Virus record (IMG/VR): IMGVR_UViG_3300029288_000071
Coordinates: 128,001-192,000 of that record
Length of the DNA: 64,000 nt
Reading direction: 5' to 3' (one strand)
Source: a virus
Lineage: Duplodnaviria; Caudoviricetes
Positions 8,931 through 24,259 of the stretch are shown piece after piece; within the stretch, counting starts at the first letter, position 1, and every line of letters begins with the position of its first letter. The position numbers and the translations under genes are program-made. The notes beneath the pieces are model-generated. The model saw only the letters and a program-made list of their open reading frames with translations. It was not told the origin of the DNA and did not search any database.

Positions 8931-9828
8931 AGTATTGTATTATTTGTTCCATCTTTATCGAGTGATTCCACTGTGCATATCTCCCAACATTAGTTACATT
9001 TGGAAATATATTTTGTAAATTTTTATAAGAGTATTTTATTTGTGCATAAGGTATTGTTATTTTATCTAAAATTTCAAAAATTTCAGAATCTCCATCATGC
9101 CAACAATCTAATTTTGTATCAACTGTTCCTTTTACTTCAAGTATTGTGTAATCTTTAAAAATACTCATTCTATGCCAAAAAGTATCTAAAGAGTAAATAT
9201 AATCATAAATCTTATAGAAAAATTTTGTATAATTAGTTGGTTTTATTTTTAAAAAAGTTGTATGAAATGCTGTAAAGTCTCTTTGTAAATCTTGATCTGC
9301 TAATTTACAAAACAAATTTAGTGGAAGTGTGTTAACTAGATGATCCCAGTTTCCATCAAAAAAGGGCTTATTAAAATTATTAACATAAAATGTATTTTCT
9401 TTTAAATCAATTTTTGTAATTTTTACTATAGTTGTTCTGTTCTGAACTTTTTCTTGAATTGTATTCAAAATTAAATCATAATCTATATCAAAAATTGTTA
9501 AAGTATCTCTATTCCCTGACATTACAGCATCTACATTTTCATGTTCTCTAGTTTTTAATGCATATTTTTTTGCAAAATCTGGAGTTTTATTAGAGCTACT
9601 TGTAAAGTCACCAACTCTATACCCTATATATACTTTCTTCTCATTAATCGGAAGATTTAATGATTTCATAAATACTGTTGTTTCAGGAGTAACTTCTAAA
9701 AGTCTTGGACCTAATTGAAAAGTATTTCGATTTTGCCATCCACCAATTTTATCAGTAATTAAATAATAATCAGGTAAATAATATGCACTTATTAGTCCAG
9801 CAACCCCGCCGCCGAGAATGAAGTTCAT
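8905..9828 (-). CDS. FAD-dependent oxidoreductase, UDP-galactopyranose-mutase-like
   Basis: ILGGGVAGL, GG, GPRLL, NTLPL, VGRYAQW...M. Confidence 0.7.
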   Translation of the reverse strand: MNFILGGGVAGLISAYYLPDYYLITDKIGGWQNRNTFQLGPRLLEVTPETTVFMKSLNLPINEKKVYIGYRVGDFTSSSNKTPDFAKKYALKTREHENVDAVMSGNRDTLTIFDIDYDLILNTIQEKVQNRTTIVKITKIDLKENTFYVNNFNKPFFDGNWDHLVNTLPLNLFCKLADQDLQRDFTAFHTTFLKIKPTNYTKFFYKIYDYIYSLDTFWHRMSIFKDYTILEVKGTVDTKLDCWHDGDSEIFEILDKITIPYAQIKYSYKNLQNIFPNVTNVGRYAQWNHSIKMEQIIQYYERLKKNI

Positions 9829-10457
9829 AAGTAATCTACTCTTTCTTTGGCTTTTATGTATTGGTTGCTTACTTTAAATGTATGGTTATTTATTTTTTTT
9901 CTTATTGTAGTTCTAACTTTCTGCTTTGTTTCTTCGGTATGATGTTTCCCATAAAAAGCATTATTTTCACCCAAATTTGATAATCTATTTTTTTCATTAG
10001 CTATTTTTTGTAGTTTATCAGCTTTAGATTTTCCATATTTATCAAGCCATACACTATAAACAGATCTACCATACATTGGATTATTTTCAGCTTTGTGGTC
10101 TAGTTTTCCTTCTAAAAATAATTTTTTATGTGATAGAGATATTTTCTTTTTAGATTCATCAGAGTGGATGAAGTTTTTACCACCCAAATTAAGATTATAC
10201 CCATATCTCTTATCATTAGAATTGAATTTTTTTATGTAAAATTGTTCTTTTTCATTTAAGTCTTTAATACTATTACAGTGCTCTAAAATTTCTTTTTTGA
10301 ATATTTTTATTCCATATTTTCTAATAGCTCTAGAAATGTATATTCCAGAACCATAATAATTATGAAAATACTTAATATTGATGGTTTGACCAATGTATAC
10401 TTTACCATTTTTTTTATTAGTAATTTTATACACTATGCCATGATATACTTTTTTCAT
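9825..10457 (-). CDS. GIY-YIG homing endonuclease with NUMOD3 motifs
   Basis: VYKITNKKNGKVYIGQT, YYGSG, GYNL, HSDESKKKIS, FYGKHHTEETK. Confidence 0.92.
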   Translation of the reverse strand: MKKVYHGIVYKITNKKNGKVYIGQTINIKYFHNYYGSGIYISRAIRKYGIKIFKKEILEHCNSIKDLNEKEQFYIKKFNSNDKRYGYNLNLGGKNFIHSDESKKKISLSHKKLFLEGKLDHKAENNPMYGRSVYSVWLDKYGKSKADKLQKIANEKNRLSNLGENNAFYGKHHTEETKQKVRTTIRKKINNHTFKVSNQYIKAKERVDYL

Positions 10458-10495: not shown

Positions 10496-10711
10496 TTATC
10501 CTAAAATAAGTTTTTTACTTTGAGGGGGTATTTCACATGAAAATGTAGAATGACAAGCCATGCATTTGTAAATGTATTTACCAGCTTTAAAAGTTACTTT
10601 TCCTTCTTCATCTACTAAAGTTAAAGATTTTTCTTCTCCTAAGTATTGAAACTCTCCATTACCTTTGCAACCAGGTTTAATACAAGTTATTTTTCTTTTT
10701 GGTTCATTCAT
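10496..10711 (-). CDS. Small Cys-containing (zinc-ribbon-like) protein
   Basis: CIKPGC...YKCMACH. Confidence 0.7.
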   Translation of the reverse strand: MNEPKRKITCIKPGCKGNGEFQYLGEEKSLTLVDEEGKVTFKAGKYIYKCMACHSTFSCEIPPQSKKLILG

Positions 10712-11367
10712 TGTAGTAATTTTTTTATTTCTGCTGCATTTTCTTTTATTATTCTTTTAGCATCTGCAGCGGTATCTATTTTATATCTTATTAGTTTGAA
10801 TCCATTTTTCTCAGCAATTTCATTTTTAAGTTTGTCATTTTCTTTGCTTTCTGGTAAAGAATGCCAATAGTTACTGTCACATTCAATTAAAATCTTTTTA
10901 TTAGGAACTTTATAGTCAAAACATCTGCCATCAATCCAAATTTGTGATTCTAAAATTATCTTAAATTTTTGGTAAACTCCATCACCAAATGCTGCTTCAG
11001 ATTTTGAAATTGGATTTGTAAAATTTCCATTTTTCAGTCTTAATTTTGCTGCTTCACTCATCTTTTTCCGAGACTCAATTGAATGTTTTCTTCCCTTGAG
11101 TGCTAGGGATATTTTATTTCTTTTTTGATCTGATCTAGCTGATGTTTGCCATTTTTCAGAATTAGCTCTTCCTATTCTAGCTTTTTCAATAGTTTTAGAA
11201 TTAATTACCCACCCTGAATGATGATTAGGTATTTTTCTTCCCTTAAGAGCTATTTTATTTGCTTTGCCTATTTTACTTTTAGCTTCTTCAGTATGCCAAG
11301 GTTTTCCATTACATTTTCTTGTCAAAACAGCTTTTTGACTAGATTCTTTTGAGCGAATCATTTTCAT
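10708..11367 (-). CDS. NUMOD3 + DUF559/Vsr-like endonuclease
   Basis: HTEEAKSKIG, GRKHSIESRKKMS; SKSE, FDY, LIECDSNYWH, END..K. Confidence 0.85.
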   Translation of the reverse strand: MKMIRSKESSQKAVLTRKCNGKPWHTEEAKSKIGKANKIALKGRKIPNHHSGWVINSKTIEKARIGRANSEKWQTSARSDQKRNKISLALKGRKHSIESRKKMSEAAKLRLKNGNFTNPISKSEAAFGDGVYQKFKIILESQIWIDGRCFDYKVPNKKILIECDSNYWHSLPESKENDKLKNEIAEKNGFKLIRYKIDTAADAKRIIKENAAEIKKLLQ

Positions 11368-11626
11368 CCCAAAAAAGCTTATGTAATTTATTTACTAAAG
11401 GAGTACGATCCACTTGGAACTCTTCATCGTTTTGAGTGACTACAAAATCTTTCAAAACTGCATAAGAAGTCATATCAGTAAACTCAGACCTATATACTTC
11501 TTCTTTATATGGTATTTCATTTTTTTTGAATTCTTCATTAAATTTATCTGCCCATGACATATCAATTTCTTCAAATTTCTGAAGTTGATTGTCATCTGAT
11601 AATAATGCTAATACTAATTTACTCAT
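11339..11626 (-). CDS. Hypothetical acidic protein
   Basis: ORF in operon. Confidence 0.7.
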   Translation of the reverse strand: MSKLVLALLSDDNQLQKFEEIDMSWADKFNEEFKKNEIPYKEEVYRSEFTDMTSYAVLKDFVVTQNDEEFQVDRTPLVNKLHKLFWDENDSLKRI

Positions 11627-11651: not shown

Positions 11652-12050
11652 TCATATCTTTAAAATTATTTCTCGATCTACTTCTTTTCTGATTTCTTCA
11701 CTAAGAGCTTTAATAAATTCTGCTTCAGTATCAACTCCTGTAAATGTTTGTAATTCTCCAATTTCAACTGTCCACTTTGTTTTTAGTTTTCGTGGTTTAC
11801 TTGCTTTTTCTGTTTTCTTAGCTTCTTCATCTATTTCATATCCTATTTTCTTCATCAAAGCTTTTATTGGATCTTTAATACTTGATGAAATTGACCTTGT
11901 TTTTGCATTACAGTTATATTTGCCACACACATTACAATAACCATCTTTATCAAAATCATGTTTTCCATTAATTAATGTACCATCCCAATCAGGATAAAGA
12001 CAATCAAAAGCTTCTTTAGGATAAATACGCCCATTCTTATTCGGAGTCAT
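11652..12050 (-). CDS. Small chimeric protein: prohead-protease-like motif + IGY tag + gp23-like capsid fragment
   Basis: NKNGRIYPKE; DPIKALMKKIGY; KPRKLKTKWTVE...GVDTEAE...LSEEI..EVDREII. Confidence 0.8.
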   Translation of the reverse strand: MTPNKNGRIYPKEAFDCLYPDWDGTLINGKHDFDKDGYCNVCGKYNCNAKTRSISSSIKDPIKALMKKIGYEIDEEAKKTEKASKPRKLKTKWTVEIGELQTFTGVDTEAEFIKALSEEIRKEVDREIILKI

Positions 12051-12261
12051 AACCTATTTTTCTCATCAGTCTTTTTATTGGATCAATTATTATTTTTTGT
12101 TCTGCAATTAAAGTTGGAGATACATACAATGGAGCGTAAGGAGCCCAAACATATCCTTGTTCTAAAAATGATTTTCCTTTATGACCTACTAGAAAATAAT
12201 CTTTTTTAACTTTAACTGCAAAAAAATCTTTAGTTTCTATCACATCTTCTTTATTTATCAT
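12037..12261 (-). CDS. Small protein: gp23-like C-terminal capsid fragment + IGY tag
   Basis: DYFLVGHKGKSFLEQGYVWAPYAPL; DPIKRLMRKIGY. Confidence 0.8.
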   Translation of the reverse strand: MINKEDVIETKDFFAVKVKKDYFLVGHKGKSFLEQGYVWAPYAPLYVSPTLIAEQKIIIDPIKRLMRKIGYDSE

Positions 12262-12484
12262 AACCTATTTTCTGCATTAGTTTATCTACTTTAGTGGGTA
12301 CTTCATAGCCAATTTTTTTCATCAATTTTTCTATAGGACTTAAAAGAGAATTGTCAGAATAAATTTGAATATCTGTCCAAAATCCTGTTCCTATTTCAGA
12401 TGATACCCACTTTCCATCTGTTCCAGTTATTGAAATATTTAAAAAACCAGGAGCTTGTTTTATTGCTGTAGTGGAATTTCGCAT
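12251..12484 (-). CDS. Small protein with two IGY tags
   Basis: SPIEKLMKKIGY and VDKLMQKIGY. Confidence 0.75.
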   Translation of the reverse strand: MRNSTTAIKQAPGFLNISITGTDGKWVSSEIGTGFWTDIQIYSDNSLLSPIEKLMKKIGYEVPTKVDKLMQKIGYDK

Positions 12485-14463
12485 ACGTCGTTATTACAAT
12501 ATTTATCGGTTTCGGCTTCTTCACCTTTGATTTTTGCAAATTGAGGTTTCTTCAATCCTTTGGATAATTCTTTAAAAGTTTTTTCATCTATTTCTTCATA
12601 GGGCATTTGTGCATATGCACCTTTTGGAGTGTTTGGAAGAAAGCTGACACCTTTGAGTTGATATTGAAAGTAATTTAAAGCATATTCTATTTGATTGCCT
12701 TCTGTTTCAGGGTCAAATCTTATTGTAGCTGACACTTGATTATCTGTCCAATATTTTTGCAGAAATGCTGCTAAAGACAATTGTTCCCACATTGAAACTT
12801 GCTTTACAGAACGAATTTCTCCAATATCGATTGGAATTGATACAATTACTGTATTAACTTCTTTTGATGCTGGTTCAATATGATATCCTGCTTTTTCTAA
12901 TGGTTTAAGTAATTGACTATTTTGAGAAATTCTAATTCTACGAATATAAAAACGAGATTCAGGATAATGCATACCAGGAGTTGCACCAGCTAACAAACTA
13001 GTAGTTCCTGAAGGCTTAACAGAAGTACATTTTTTAGATTTTGGAATAGCTAACCAATCAGAATATACTTCATCCCATTTCTGAATTTCATCATAACCTT
13101 TTTGACACCATTCTTTAAATTCATTTATTCCTCTTTTTTCAATTATTTGAGCAATTCCTGACATAGAACATCCAATTCTTCTATTTCTAAGCATAACTCT
13201 ATTAGATTCTGCCCAATGTGTTTTACCCAAAGTAACAGTTTTAGCATAGAGATAAGCAAATTTGAGAGTTCTTAAAAAATCTTCTAAATTTTCATGATTG
13301 TTTGGAAATGTTTCAACTAATGTACAGAGTTCGTACGACTCCAATGATTGTTCTACACAAGGATTAGGTCCAGCCACTCTTTTATCTTTCCAATCAGGAC
13401 CATTATTTATTCTAGAATATGCTTTCATATTTTCTAACCAAACATATCCTGGTTCTCCATTTTTAGCAGTTTGAGTTGCTACTTTTTTGTAATTCATTCC
13501 TAAATCAGCAAATATAGAATTATTAGAAGTCCAACCATACCCTGCTCTATGTTTTGAACTACCAATATAATCTTTCTTTTCATCATCCCAATGATAATCT
13601 TTTAATTTAAGATATTCATCTGATTTATAATCACCTACAGATATTTGAGCACTTCTTCTAACATTACCTGAAACTACACAAACACCAATATGATTCATTA
13701 AATCTACTATAGCTGTTGTTGAAATTTGCTGGCCAATTTCTCTATTTAAAGTTAATCTAATATTTTTATGAAGATCAACTAAAGGATCAGCACCTGAAGA
13801 AATTCCCCCGAATGTTTTAATCGGCTCTCCTGCTTTTCGTATGTCTGAATAATCAAATTCTATATCCCCAGTTCCTAAAAAATATGCATCTAAAAGTAAT
13901 CTTAAAGATTCAACCCAGCCTTCTCTACTATCTGGAATTTTAAAAGTTTCTATTGATCTCTTTTTATTTGGTCCTTTTACTTCAATTAAACCAACCCCTT
14001 TTGTATCAAATCCTACACCAACACCTAACATTGACATATCCATCATAAATAAAAATGGTTTTGAGGGTTCTTCTTTTATATTTTCTGTTGAAATGAACGA
14101 GCAGTTATTGAGTGCTGCATAAAGATGTTTTTCTTCTGTAATTAAAGATCCCATCCCCCAAATACCTCTTCCAGGTGGAAGGAATTTCATATTAAACATT
14201 CGATCATACATTTCTTGAGCAGACTTTTGAGCTTGATATGCATTCCAACCCAAGCCATTTTCATCAATATGTCTTTTTTGCATATTATAAGTTCCATTTA
14301 CTACTCTTTGACAAGTTTCCCACCATTGCTCATTTGAACCATCTGATTTTATTCTTGAATATGTTCTTAAATAAGTAATTTCTCCTAAACCGTTAAATCC
14401 AAAGGGTGGTTTTTTATCTTCATACTGTTCTATAAACCTTTCTGATAATCTAAATTTATCCAA
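12460..14463 (-). CDS. nrdJ: Class II (adenosylcobalamin) ribonucleoside-triphosphate reductase
   Basis: RTYSR, PPGRG, LNNC, GNVRRSA, NPCVEQ, KPSGT, C-terminal YCNNDVC. Confidence 0.95.
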   Translation of the reverse strand: MDKFRLSERFIEQYEDKKPPFGFNGLGEITYLRTYSRIKSDGSNEQWWETCQRVVNGTYNMQKRHIDENGLGWNAYQAQKSAQEMYDRMFNMKFLPPGRGIWGMGSLITEEKHLYAALNNCSFISTENIKEEPSKPFLFMMDMSMLGVGVGFDTKGVGLIEVKGPNKKRSIETFKIPDSREGWVESLRLLLDAYFLGTGDIEFDYSDIRKAGEPIKTFGGISSGADPLVDLHKNIRLTLNREIGQQISTTAIVDLMNHIGVCVVSGNVRRSAQISVGDYKSDEYLKLKDYHWDDEKKDYIGSSKHRAGYGWTSNNSIFADLGMNYKKVATQTAKNGEPGYVWLENMKAYSRINNGPDWKDKRVAGPNPCVEQSLESYELCTLVETFPNNHENLEDFLRTLKFAYLYAKTVTLGKTHWAESNRVMLRNRRIGCSMSGIAQIIEKRGINEFKEWCQKGYDEIQKWDEVYSDWLAIPKSKKCTSVKPSGTTSLLAGATPGMHYPESRFYIRRIRISQNSQLLKPLEKAGYHIEPASKEVNTVIVSIPIDIGEIRSVKQVSMWEQLSLAAFLQKYWTDNQVSATIRFDPETEGNQIEYALNYFQYQLKGVSFLPNTPKGAYAQMPYEEIDEKTFKELSKGLKKPQFAKIKGEEAETDKYCNNDVCEIPLQQ

Positions 14464-14770
14464 TCTGTTTCTCCGGTTGATATATTCTTTTCATTAGTGT
14501 TTCAATTATTGCGTCAATATTCAAACTGTCTTTTATTTCTTTATTTAAGTTTTCTATTTTTTCTATTTCTTCTTTATCCATAACTACAAAGTGAGGATAG
14601 AGACACTCAACTCTGTTTATAAAATTTAAATCATTTATAATTGGCATATAAATTAATCTAATCCCATCTTTCTTTAATTGATCTGCCATTTCTTTAAGAT
14701 TATCAACAACTCTTTCAGCATTTTCTGGAGAAAATTTAGTCATGTTTATATACATTGCCAATATTATCAT
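14456..14770 (-). CDS. Small protein with a portal(gp20)-like motif and a degenerate IGY tag
   Basis: MYINMTKFSPENAERVV; IETLMKRIY. Confidence 0.6.
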   Translation of the reverse strand: MIILAMYINMTKFSPENAERVVDNLKEMADQLKKDGIRLIYMPIINDLNFINRVECLYPHFVVMDKEEIEKIENLNKEIKDSLNIDAIIETLMKRIYQPEKQIG

Positions 14771-22892: not shown

Positions 22893-23735
22893 CAATTGTT
22901 TGTAAAATGCGTAATTATTTTTAAAAAAATTATTTTCTTTTACTTTAGAAAACTTATCAAGCGCTCGTTTATTAAAAATAATTCCATGAATATCTAAACC
23001 ACTTTTTGAAGTTCTTAAGTAAGTAATTAAGTTGTATTTTTGACTTAACTTTTTAAAAATTTCTATTTGCATTAAAATATAATGATACTTAGAAGTATCA
23101 ATTAGTTCTTGATTAGGCGTTGCAAAAATAAAAACATCTGCTTTTGAAAGTTTTAAAATCATTTCTTCAGGATTGCTAACGTGCTCTAATGTATGAAAAC
23201 AAGTGCATATTGATTTTTCTGGAAATTTCGTAAATTCATCAGGATGTTTATAAGTAATCCCAACTCCTGCCATTAAGTCTCTAAAATCTTTAACTTCAAC
23301 TAAAATTTTTTCTTTACAGTCAGGTAAAAGTGCTAAAAATGGAGAAGATCCTCCACCAAAATCAATTACTGTATCATCTTTTTCTATTATTGAATTTATA
23401 AAATTAGCATATTCAACATCAAATCCGGGATTTTCATAAGGAGGATTCAATCTAACAGCCCCATAACCTGGAGCATCTGTGATAATTGTTTTGTTGTCTT
23501 CTCTATCACACTTAAGTTTTATTCTTTCTTCATAATTTTCTTTTAGAAACTTAACTTTAGCTTTAAATGATTCAGGAGTATTAAATCCATCATAACCTGC
23601 TAAGTCAGTATATGATTCATAATTAGTATTTTCCCAATTGCATCTTTTTCTTAAGATTCGATAAAACTCATCATCTGAATTTCTTGCAAGTTTGATTTCA
23701 TCTGAAAATATTTTTACTTCTTTAAATTCTTCCAT
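22884..23735 (-). CDS. Class I SAM-dependent methyltransferase
   Basis: VIDFGGG, FHTLEHVSNP, ATPN. Confidence 0.75.
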   Translation of the reverse strand: MEEFKEVKIFSDEIKLARNSDDEFYRILRKRCNWENTNYESYTDLAGYDGFNTPESFKAKVKFLKENYEERIKLKCDREDNKTIITDAPGYGAVRLNPPYENPGFDVEYANFINSIIEKDDTVIDFGGGSSPFLALLPDCKEKILVEVKDFRDLMAGVGITYKHPDEFTKFPEKSICTCFHTLEHVSNPEEMILKLSKADVFIFATPNQELIDTSKYHYILMQIEIFKKLSQKYNLITYLRTSKSGLDIHGIIFNKRALDKFSKVKENNFFKNNYAFYKQLFT

Positions 23736-24259
23736 TAATATCCGATTCTTTTCATTAAAACTTCGATAGGATCTATAATTTTTGGGATAAAGTTTGGTGG
23801 AGATACTTTTAAATTATTACTACCCATATTAAGTGGCATTATTCCTTCAGAAAATTCTGTTTCAGCATATCTAGCTATAATTCCCCTTCTAGGAATAAAA
23901 CTAGGATCAATAATCGGTACAGTTGGCATTAATGTCAGAAAATAAAATATTTTATTTGTTGCTATTTTATTTAATTCATCAGTAACTACATCAAATAATT
24001 GATCAAGTATTTCTCTTTTAGAATAATCAAGTGAATCAACAAATGAACATCTTAATTTTCTACTTGCACAAATTAAAGGTTTTTGTATTAGTTCTAAATC
24101 TTCTAAAATAGTTATTACAAAAGTAGGACTAGGTGCTCGATCATATTTAAACCTAACTTTATCAGGATTATTGTGAAAATAAATAAAAAGATTGTCAGTA
24201 AATTCAATGTTATTTATTCCTGAAAAATTAACTATTTTATTTGGTTGATAATCTATCAT
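23735..24259 (-). CDS. Protein with gp23-like capsid fragments + C-terminal IGY tag
   Basis: ASRKLRCSF; DPSFIPRRGIIARYA; DPIEVLMKRIGY. Confidence 0.72.
   Translation of the reverse strand: MIDYQPNKIVNFSGINNIEFTDNLFIYFHNNPDKVRFKYDRAPSPTFVITILEDLELIQKPLICASRKLRCSFVDSLDYSKREILDQLFDVVTDELNKIATNKIFYFLTLMPTVPIIDPSFIPRRGIIARYAETEFSEGIMPLNMGSNNLKVSPPNFIPKIIDPIEVLMKRIGY

Follow-up and report, generated by a model that had tools for sequence, protein, structure and literature searches.

What could a peptide of 132 residues be for when it joins pieces of two different phage head genes? The question is raised by one open reading frame (ORF132) of the window, the whole stretch of 64,000 nucleotides analyzed here, which represents bases 128001-192000 of a 207,030-bp IMG/VR virus record (29% G+C, completeness estimate 91%) and in which the minus strand carries almost all genes. 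A preliminary description, made without database searches, had placed at 11661-12044 an ORF with a prohead-protease motif and a major-capsid segment on either side of a tag. This interval falls within the ORF at 11652..12050 on the minus strand, and the matches to gp21 and gp23 presented below bear out the idea of two head genes in one peptide. Since the pieces come from two different head genes, truncation of one gene cannot yield ORF132. At this base composition, the odds of 132 codons staying open by chance are roughly 1e-5 (arithmetic, with stops at about 0.08 per codon at 29% G+C). The exact protein is on record from this genome alone. Judged from its sequence and that of its relatives, ORF132 encodes a genuine accessory mini-protein, which is built of modules and under selection. 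The features of its surroundings are as follows.

11652..12050, minus strand: ORF132, a 132-residue mini-protein of four modules, third gene of the cassette (from the ORF list)
12003..12047, minus strand: ORF132 residues 2-16, N-terminal motif of gp21 (prohead protease), matching the genome's own Peptidase_S77 protein
11916..12002, minus strand: ORF132 residues 17-45, C-H-C-C zinc-knuckle-like module, with small-protein homologues
11835..11876, minus strand: ORF132 residues 59-72, internal helical tag (regular expression and tag profile)
11664..11801, minus strand: ORF132 residues 84-129, fragment of the gp23 P domain (Pfam Gp23, own major capsid protein, T4 gp23)
12037..12261, minus strand: ORF74, second cassette gene, with a degenerate remnant of the gp21 motif, a C-terminal piece of gp23 and a tag (from the ORF list)
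12097..12210, minus strand: the gp23 C-terminal piece in ORF74 (BLASTP to the own major capsid protein, Pfam Gp23, T4 gp23)
12251..12484, minus strand: ORF77, first cassette gene, with an N-terminal part without assignment and two copies of the tag
11339..11626, minus strand: ORF95, an untagged conserved downstream gene, used as synteny anchor and outside the mimic
9825-10457: GIY-YIG/NUMOD3 homing endonuclease (Pfam)
10708-11367: HNH-type/NUMOD3 homing endonuclease (Pfam)

The genes follow each other in the order ORF77-ORF74-ORF132, behind a gene for a class II ribonucleotide reductase (RNR). The start codons of ORF132 and ORF74 sit within the Gly-Tyr-Asp codons of the tag of the preceding ORF (12037-12050 and 12251-12261, respectively). 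Hence, the DNA of the tag doubles as a translational-coupling junction, and the three genes are a translationally coupled cassette. ORF77 had no match to any head protein in searches with Pfam, PHROG, BLASTP, and the six-frame translation of the genome. A promoter scan revealed no T4-type late promoter near the cassette and only chance levels of sigma-70-like sites. These scans were uninformative, and the timing of expression is inferred from gene order alone. Two free-standing homing endonucleases lie downstream of the cassette, on either side of a conserved 71-residue ORF. The cassette region is an accessory region amid nucleotide-metabolism genes.

The C-terminal part of ORF132 is a fragment of a capsid protein. 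The Pfam Gp23 profile (PF07068) matched residues 80-132 at positions 141-194 of 376, with an E value of 3.3e-8 and 33.8 bits, the curated gathering cut-off being 24.4 bits. The PHROG 138 family (“major head protein”) also matched ORF132 (E value of 2.6e-8). The preliminary description would have been refuted on this point had the segment failed to hit gp23 profiles, and it did not fail. The T4 segment that had been named there is also the one recovered by phmmer against PDB, where the fragment aligns with T4 gp23 residues 250-307 and its residues 84-129 correspond to 262-307. The true major capsid protein (MCP) of the genome has 572 residues and is encoded 128 kb from ORF132; residues 84-129 of the latter share 21 of 47 positions (45%) with MCP residues 319-365 (BLASTP E value of 1e-10). 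A different piece of the same protein is found in ORF74, whose residues 21-55 are 57% identical to MCP residues 499-533 (BLASTP E value of 4e-13). ORF74 also matches Pfam Gp23 (E value of 2e-4, profile positions 299-331), and its residues 18-45 align with T4 gp23 residues 429-456. ORF132 and ORF74 are the only tagged ORFs with significant similarity to other genes of their own genome.

These are excerpts, not capsid proteins. T4 gp23 and gp24 (PF07068, HK97 fold; PDB 5VF3 and 7VS5) are homologous to ORF132 residues 84-129 and ORF74 residues 18-55, but the two pieces make up less than 20% of the gp23 fold and lack the A domain, the E loop, the N arm, and the insertion domain. Their order in the cassette is permuted, with the C-terminal piece first, and a capsid subunit cannot form. 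In ORF132 itself the homology spans 46 residues only and a complete HK97 fold is absent. Because it holds only fragments, ORF132 is a derivative that falls outside both the gp23 and the gp21 family. The excerpts come from conserved parts of the protein: in an alignment of four MCPs, the copied stretches rank second and third among the most conserved 35-residue windows. The first (residues 76-110 of the own MCP), which from its position we infer to correspond to the Gol region, is copied in no mini-protein of the genome. A tblastn search of 50,697 phage records found the gp23 fragment of ORF132 in 634 of them, in one place each and always in the MCP gene, which means that cultured phages lack a second copy at the sensitivity of that search. 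We also considered whether polar replacements at buried positions of the spine helix could be a signature of stand-alone fragments. They are suggestive, but some long MCP-like proteins are likewise polar at these positions. Separately, a tagged 174-residue ORF (window 23735-24259), which is 90% identical in the sister phage described below, has before its tag a stretch resembling the C-terminal P-domain strand of the MCP; its match to the own MCP is not significant (E value of 0.8).

The evidence for the protease piece is of a different kind. The genome encodes its own Peptidase_S77 protease (L004:340-948, Pfam E value of 1.4e-27), and residues 2-16 of ORF132 share 9 of 15 positions with residues 43-57 of this protein (pairwise E value of 1e-4). 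This is the best non-self match of the N terminus in a six-frame search of the 207-kb genome, with an E value of 0.09 only. The similarity stops after 15 residues and the S77 catalytic core is absent. The Pfam profile (PF03420) does not match residues 1-58 of ORF132 at E values up to 10. The preliminary description had warned that the short protease motif was weak on its own, and these values agree with the warning. Its proposal that the N terminus resembles gp21 is supported by the match to the own protease and by the sister phage, though not by any stand-alone Pfam match. In the sister phage, residues 3-25 of a 102-residue ORF, whose N terminus aligns with that of ORF132, match positions 55-77 of the S77 profile (E value of 1.5e-3); the score of 18.5 bits is below the cut-off of 27. 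On sequence grounds, therefore, the gp21 match of ORF132 is borderline alone and supported by the 23-residue version of the sister phage. T4 gp21 (PF03420; PDB 5JBL) and the gp21 of this genome share with ORF132 the motif N-x-N-x-R-x-Y-P-K, but what is shared amounts to 15 residues (23 in the sister phage) and includes no catalytic residues.

Between the two head-protein pieces lies a module that is unrelated to both gp21 and gp23. The preliminary description had noticed a small H..C..C knuckle here. The knuckle is real and larger than was said, being part of an independent and widespread C-H-C-C module. An exhaustive profile-free search revealed about 45 small proteins that share residues 14-55 of ORF132 at 50-67% identity. 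In an alignment of 43 sequences (ORF132 and 42 homologous small proteins), C17, Y19, P20, D21, W22, G24, H31, G37, C39, C42, and G43 are nearly invariant. No Pfam family matches the module. AlphaFold2 (AF2) models it with short strands and a pLDDT above 90, and it presumably binds zinc, metal binding being inferred. The module was also found within a protein of 2252 residues (P0044), which has a weak encapsulin-like (Linocin_M18) match near its C terminus.

The tag, with the core L-M-K-K-I-G-Y, occupies residues 59-72 of ORF132, between the pieces of head proteins (tag profile E value of 3e-7). Searches with a regular expression and a profile found it in about 26-30 ORFs genome-wide, nearly always within 10 residues of the C terminus. 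In ORF132 it is followed by 61 residues, and one other tagged ORF has a long extension after the tag. ORF77 carries two tags and ORF74 one. Synonymous codons vary among the copies, so it is the peptide that is conserved and not the DNA. The tag-coding repeats of ORF74 and ORF132 are roughly 80% identical over about 39 bases, as counted from the codons, and the ORF132 chimera probably arose by recombination between such repeats. In two MAFFT alignments, the tag of ORF74 (12046-12090) and that of its orthologue co-align with MCP residues at about 538-551, with matches at Pro, Leu/Val-Met, Lys/Arg, and Gly in the next conserved strand of the MCP. Still, a derivation of the tag from this C-terminal strand is unsupported, since the tag profile fails to retrieve the MCP. 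Among the other tagged ORFs, one of 138 residues (L005, genome 116436-116852) has a P-loop-like start and a weak match to Pfam AAA_14 (E value of 0.14). It may be another excerpt-type protein, which remains unproven.

The locus can be compared with that of a sister phage (G001, IMGVR_UViG_3300037067_023432), a 20.3-kb contig (loci L089 and L097) that is syntenic with the window along its whole length. The neighboring proteins are 72-90% identical, with dN/dS of 0.04-0.09, and dS is about 1-1.7 for most flanking genes. ORF95 is 78% identical to an 87-residue ORF (dN/dS of 0.09), an orthologue of the 71-residue ORF is also present, and both homing endonucleases are missing from the syntenic region. 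The cassette genes are 38-55% identical between the phages (BLASTP). A 62-residue ORF is the orthologue of ORF77. The 102-residue ORF is the orthologue of ORF74 and has the 23-residue protease motif, then the C-terminal capsid piece, then the tag; it matches Pfam Gp23 too (E value of 9e-4). In a 114-residue ORF, the counterpart of ORF132, the tag splits the capsid strand from the capsid spine helix. Each phage has a single excerpt of the protease and a single C-terminal excerpt of the capsid protein, together with one copy each of the capsid strand and the spine helix, and the carriers of these excerpts differ. The excerpts have been kept but rearranged, which argues that the excerpts themselves are selected. 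The dN/dS is about 0.3-0.45 for ORF77 and the 62-residue ORF, for ORF74 and the 102-residue ORF, and for the tag plus helix of ORF132 and the 114-residue ORF. A global alignment of the latter pair, which takes in rearranged stretches, gives 0.67. This is what one would expect if modules under constraint sat in carriers that evolve rapidly.

The surroundings of the cassette also vary between the two phages. The RNR gene upstream (12460-14463) encodes a class II enzyme of 667 residues here and a different RNR of 810 residues in the sister phage (L089:1894-4326). Since orthologous genes lie on both sides of the differing RNRs, one RNR gene has apparently replaced the other at a hot spot. A 104-residue ORF upstream of the RNR (14456-14770) is 30% identical to its counterpart, against 58-90% for its neighbors, and represents another small gene next to the RNR that evolves rapidly.

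Further relatives are few. The exact family is known from two genomes and two short contigs only. The metagenome protein P0004 shows the layout of ORF132 (tag, strand, helix) and P0002 shows that of the sister phage (strand, tag, helix). P0036 has a capsid excerpt with a tag-like N terminus, P0061 carries the C-terminal capsid piece, and P0040 has both capsid excerpts fused, in the order of ORF74 then ORF132. Each of the metagenome relatives is a singleton, and only one of them is not from a short contig. At 80 relative loci anchored on the RNR (up to 68% identity), there was no tag and no homologue of ORF132, ORF74, ORF77, or ORF95. Scans of viral contigs with ORF132, P0002, P0040, and ORF95 found nothing beyond the sister phage, a protein search with the ORF of the latter retrieved only itself, and a metagenome scan gave, among the matches listed, only an ordinary MCP and a false positive. 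Three other small metagenome proteins (P0043, P0056, and P0059) have the same capsid mid-fragment after a twin-arginine-like hydrophobic leader. They may be an exported or membrane-anchored family of capsid fragments, or N-terminal pieces of another MCP clade.

What could these excerpts do? We favor, with a probability of about 0.35, the hypothesis that they mimic the surfaces of unassembled head proteins and act most likely as decoys for host immune sensors. This is an inference, for which no binding partner is known. The excerpts would compete for a partner that normally recognizes the surfaces of unassembled head proteins, and this partner would be a host immune sensor of the capsid protein or of the prohead protease. 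Apparently transcribed together with genes of nucleotide metabolism, the mini-proteins would serve as decoys or shields, and the tag they share would connect them to whatever factor recognizes the roughly 30 tagged proteins. We prefer a host sensor as the partner because head proteins are sensed by defenses and because the evolutionary tempo of the cassette fits an arms race. Lit and CapRel sense the MCP through short motifs, Avs7/8/10 sense it as well, and prohead proteases activate CBASS. The hypothesis has weak points. The cited CBASS senses protease activity rather than an epitope, and the 15-residue excerpt of gp21 is therefore not an obvious decoy. The capsid fragments are 45-57% identical to the own MCP, so that a sensor tuned to the true MCP might not bind them. 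In the literature we found no experiment in which a phage used peptides of its own capsid or protease as a decoy.

The position of the excerpts in the T4 head bears both on the mimicry of head proteins and on an alternative, the regulation of head assembly. In T4 gp23, residues 292, 306, and 307 belong to the spine helix, residue 455 to the P-domain sheet, and residues 457-461 to the P loop (PMC9546572). Residues 268, 275, 285, and 287 flank a short acidic helix of the P domain; near the quasi-threefold axes, this helix pairs by charge with the positive P-domain strand of the next capsomer (PMC9546572). The residue letters given in that work match those of our alignment between ORF132 and T4 gp23. 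From the alignment at 262-307, the excerpt of ORF132 thus comprises the positive strand, the short acidic helix, the G loop, and the spine helix. The excerpt of ORF74 (T4 429-456) is the strand that enters the P-domain sheet, up to the P loop. As far as the T4 alignment and the published structure allow, both excerpts are from the periphery of the P domain and consist of elements making contacts between capsomers. The preliminary description had proposed that the two pieces be mapped onto head structures as possible interaction surfaces; this succeeded for gp23, and for gp21 the motif was merely seen in PDB 5JBL.

The predicted structures do not provide a partner. The AF2 model of ORF132 resembles beads on a string (pTM of 0.34) without a compact fold. 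The helix at residues 109-131 has a pLDDT above 90, the tag is part of a long helix, and the copied strand is disordered and unpaired. A complex prediction of ORF74 residues 1-56 with ORF132 residues 74-132 (tags removed, with alignments) gave no verdict, with a score of 0.00. In P0040, where both excerpts are fused, only the helices alone are confident (pTM of 0.31) and there is no compact mini P domain. Foldseek found no match of the ORF132 model to PDB at E values of 0.001 or below, and the clusters retrieved from the ESM Atlas, at scores up to 0.85, were all unnamed.

The cassette could regulate the assembly of the phage's own heads, which we regard as unlikely without setting it aside. 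Through complementation of strands or helices, the excerpts would bind to the edges of unassembled gp23 capsomers and to gp21, and would delay the growth of the lattice or keep free protease inactive until proheads form. Such a role would loosely resemble that of T4 Inh. It would account for the co-occurrence of protease and capsid excerpts in the same proteins, and for the copying of precisely those gp23 elements that make contacts between capsomers, including gp31-bypass positions. The copied strand, being unpaired in the model of the monomer, may need a partner. But the cassette is not a core component, since it is absent from the 80 RNR-anchored relatives and, at the sensitivity of the tblastn search, from cultured phages, and it evolves several times faster than one expects of assembly genes. 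Its setting among nucleotide-metabolism genes, without a T4-type late promoter nearby, and a tag common to about 30 unrelated proteins do not suit a dedicated role in assembly either.

The chimera could also be a neutral by-product of recombination through tag repeats and microhomology, the excerpts being passengers while the tag or the zinc module alone is selected. The region is plastic, with an RNR swapped, endonucleases gained or lost, and modules rearranged between the phages. The dN/dS values are relaxed relative to the neighbors and no fold or partner is predicted. Profile methods favor conserved segments, which biases the excerpts that are recognized. Yet, at 29% G+C a random stop is expected in roughly 1 codon in 12, and with a dS of about 1 unselected frames would fill with stops, whereas all six cassette ORFs of the two phages are intact. 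This rules out long-term neutrality. The conservation between the phages is concentrated in the excerpts and tags, not in the linkers; the same excerpts are found in four independent sequences with two layouts; and the capsid excerpt of ORF132 still scores above the curated Pfam threshold. Passenger status for the excerpts is, in our opinion, quite unlikely.

A bolder form of the decoy hypothesis gives the tag a function. The tagged mini-proteins would be a “bait library” that shows host sensors, early in infection, excerpts of those head proteins of the phage that are visible to immunity (the edge of the capsid P domain and the prohead protease). Sensors caught in this way would be passed by the tag to one reader encoded by the phage, and be sequestered or destroyed. 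The reader could be, e.g., a soluble AAA+/M41 protease noted at another place in the genome. If true, the library would amount to a programmable system against sensors, whose evolution proceeds by moving excerpts from tag to tag. We consider this improbable as it stands. Finally, there is little reason to see the cassette as a weapon against rivals, with dominant-negative caps acting on the lattice or protease of co-infecting T4-like phages and sparing the own diverged MCP: the fragments do differ markedly from the own MCP while keeping residues of the family consensus, the protease excerpt of the sister phage looks closer to T4 gp21 than to the gp21 of the present genome (from reading the alignments, without direct comparison), the cassette evolves rapidly, and the adjoining homing endonucleases are agents of competition between phages, but this is pure inference, fragments so short and without a fold may be unable to compete with entire capsomers, and the shared tag is left unexplained.

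To return to the favored hypothesis of decoys for host sensors, are there known systems of similar design? We found in the literature no published phage example of such a mini-protein made of head-protein excerpts. By analogy, the closest published design, a shared module plus an excerpt of an own gene, seems to be that of Bodo saltans virus, in which many ankyrin-repeat proteins bear fragments of essential viral genes and were proposed to be decoys, a proposal that is untested (Deeg et al. 2018, PMC5871332). Both cases have fast-evolving accessory proteins with a common module and a fragment of an essential gene of the same virus; the likeness is one of design and not of homology. Bodo saltans virus is a eukaryotic giant virus, its carrier is an array of ankyrin repeats rather than a 13-residue helix, and the genes excerpted there encode catalytic domains (DNA polymerase, MutS) instead of head proteins.

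The tag has a parallel in the capsid targeting sequence (CTS) of T4, an N-terminal peptide cleaved by gp21 that routes internal proteins into the prohead core (PMC9958956). Both are short peptides on otherwise unrelated small proteins, and the CTS acts as an address label. Unlike the CTS, the tag is C-terminal, or internal in ORF132, its reader is unknown, and there are no data on packaging. The capsid excerpt, in turn, resembles Gol, a short conserved segment from the first quarter of gp23. In the Gol/EF-Tu/Lit exclusion, this segment acts by itself as a peptide signal that is recognized inside the infected cell (PMC3014915). The piece in ORF132 is likewise a short and highly conserved gp23 segment. 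It is not Gol, since it maps to residues 262-307 of 521.

The capsid protein and the prohead protease are major triggers of bacterial abortive-infection immunity, and the means by which T4-like phages conceal such unavoidable signals have yet to be established. As a candidate counter-measure of this kind, the cassette is concrete and can be tested. It could instead represent a novel means of tuning or sabotaging the assembly of heads. It also suggests that a short shared tag can serve as a recombination joint, with which a phage can build small proteins from excerpts of its own genes.
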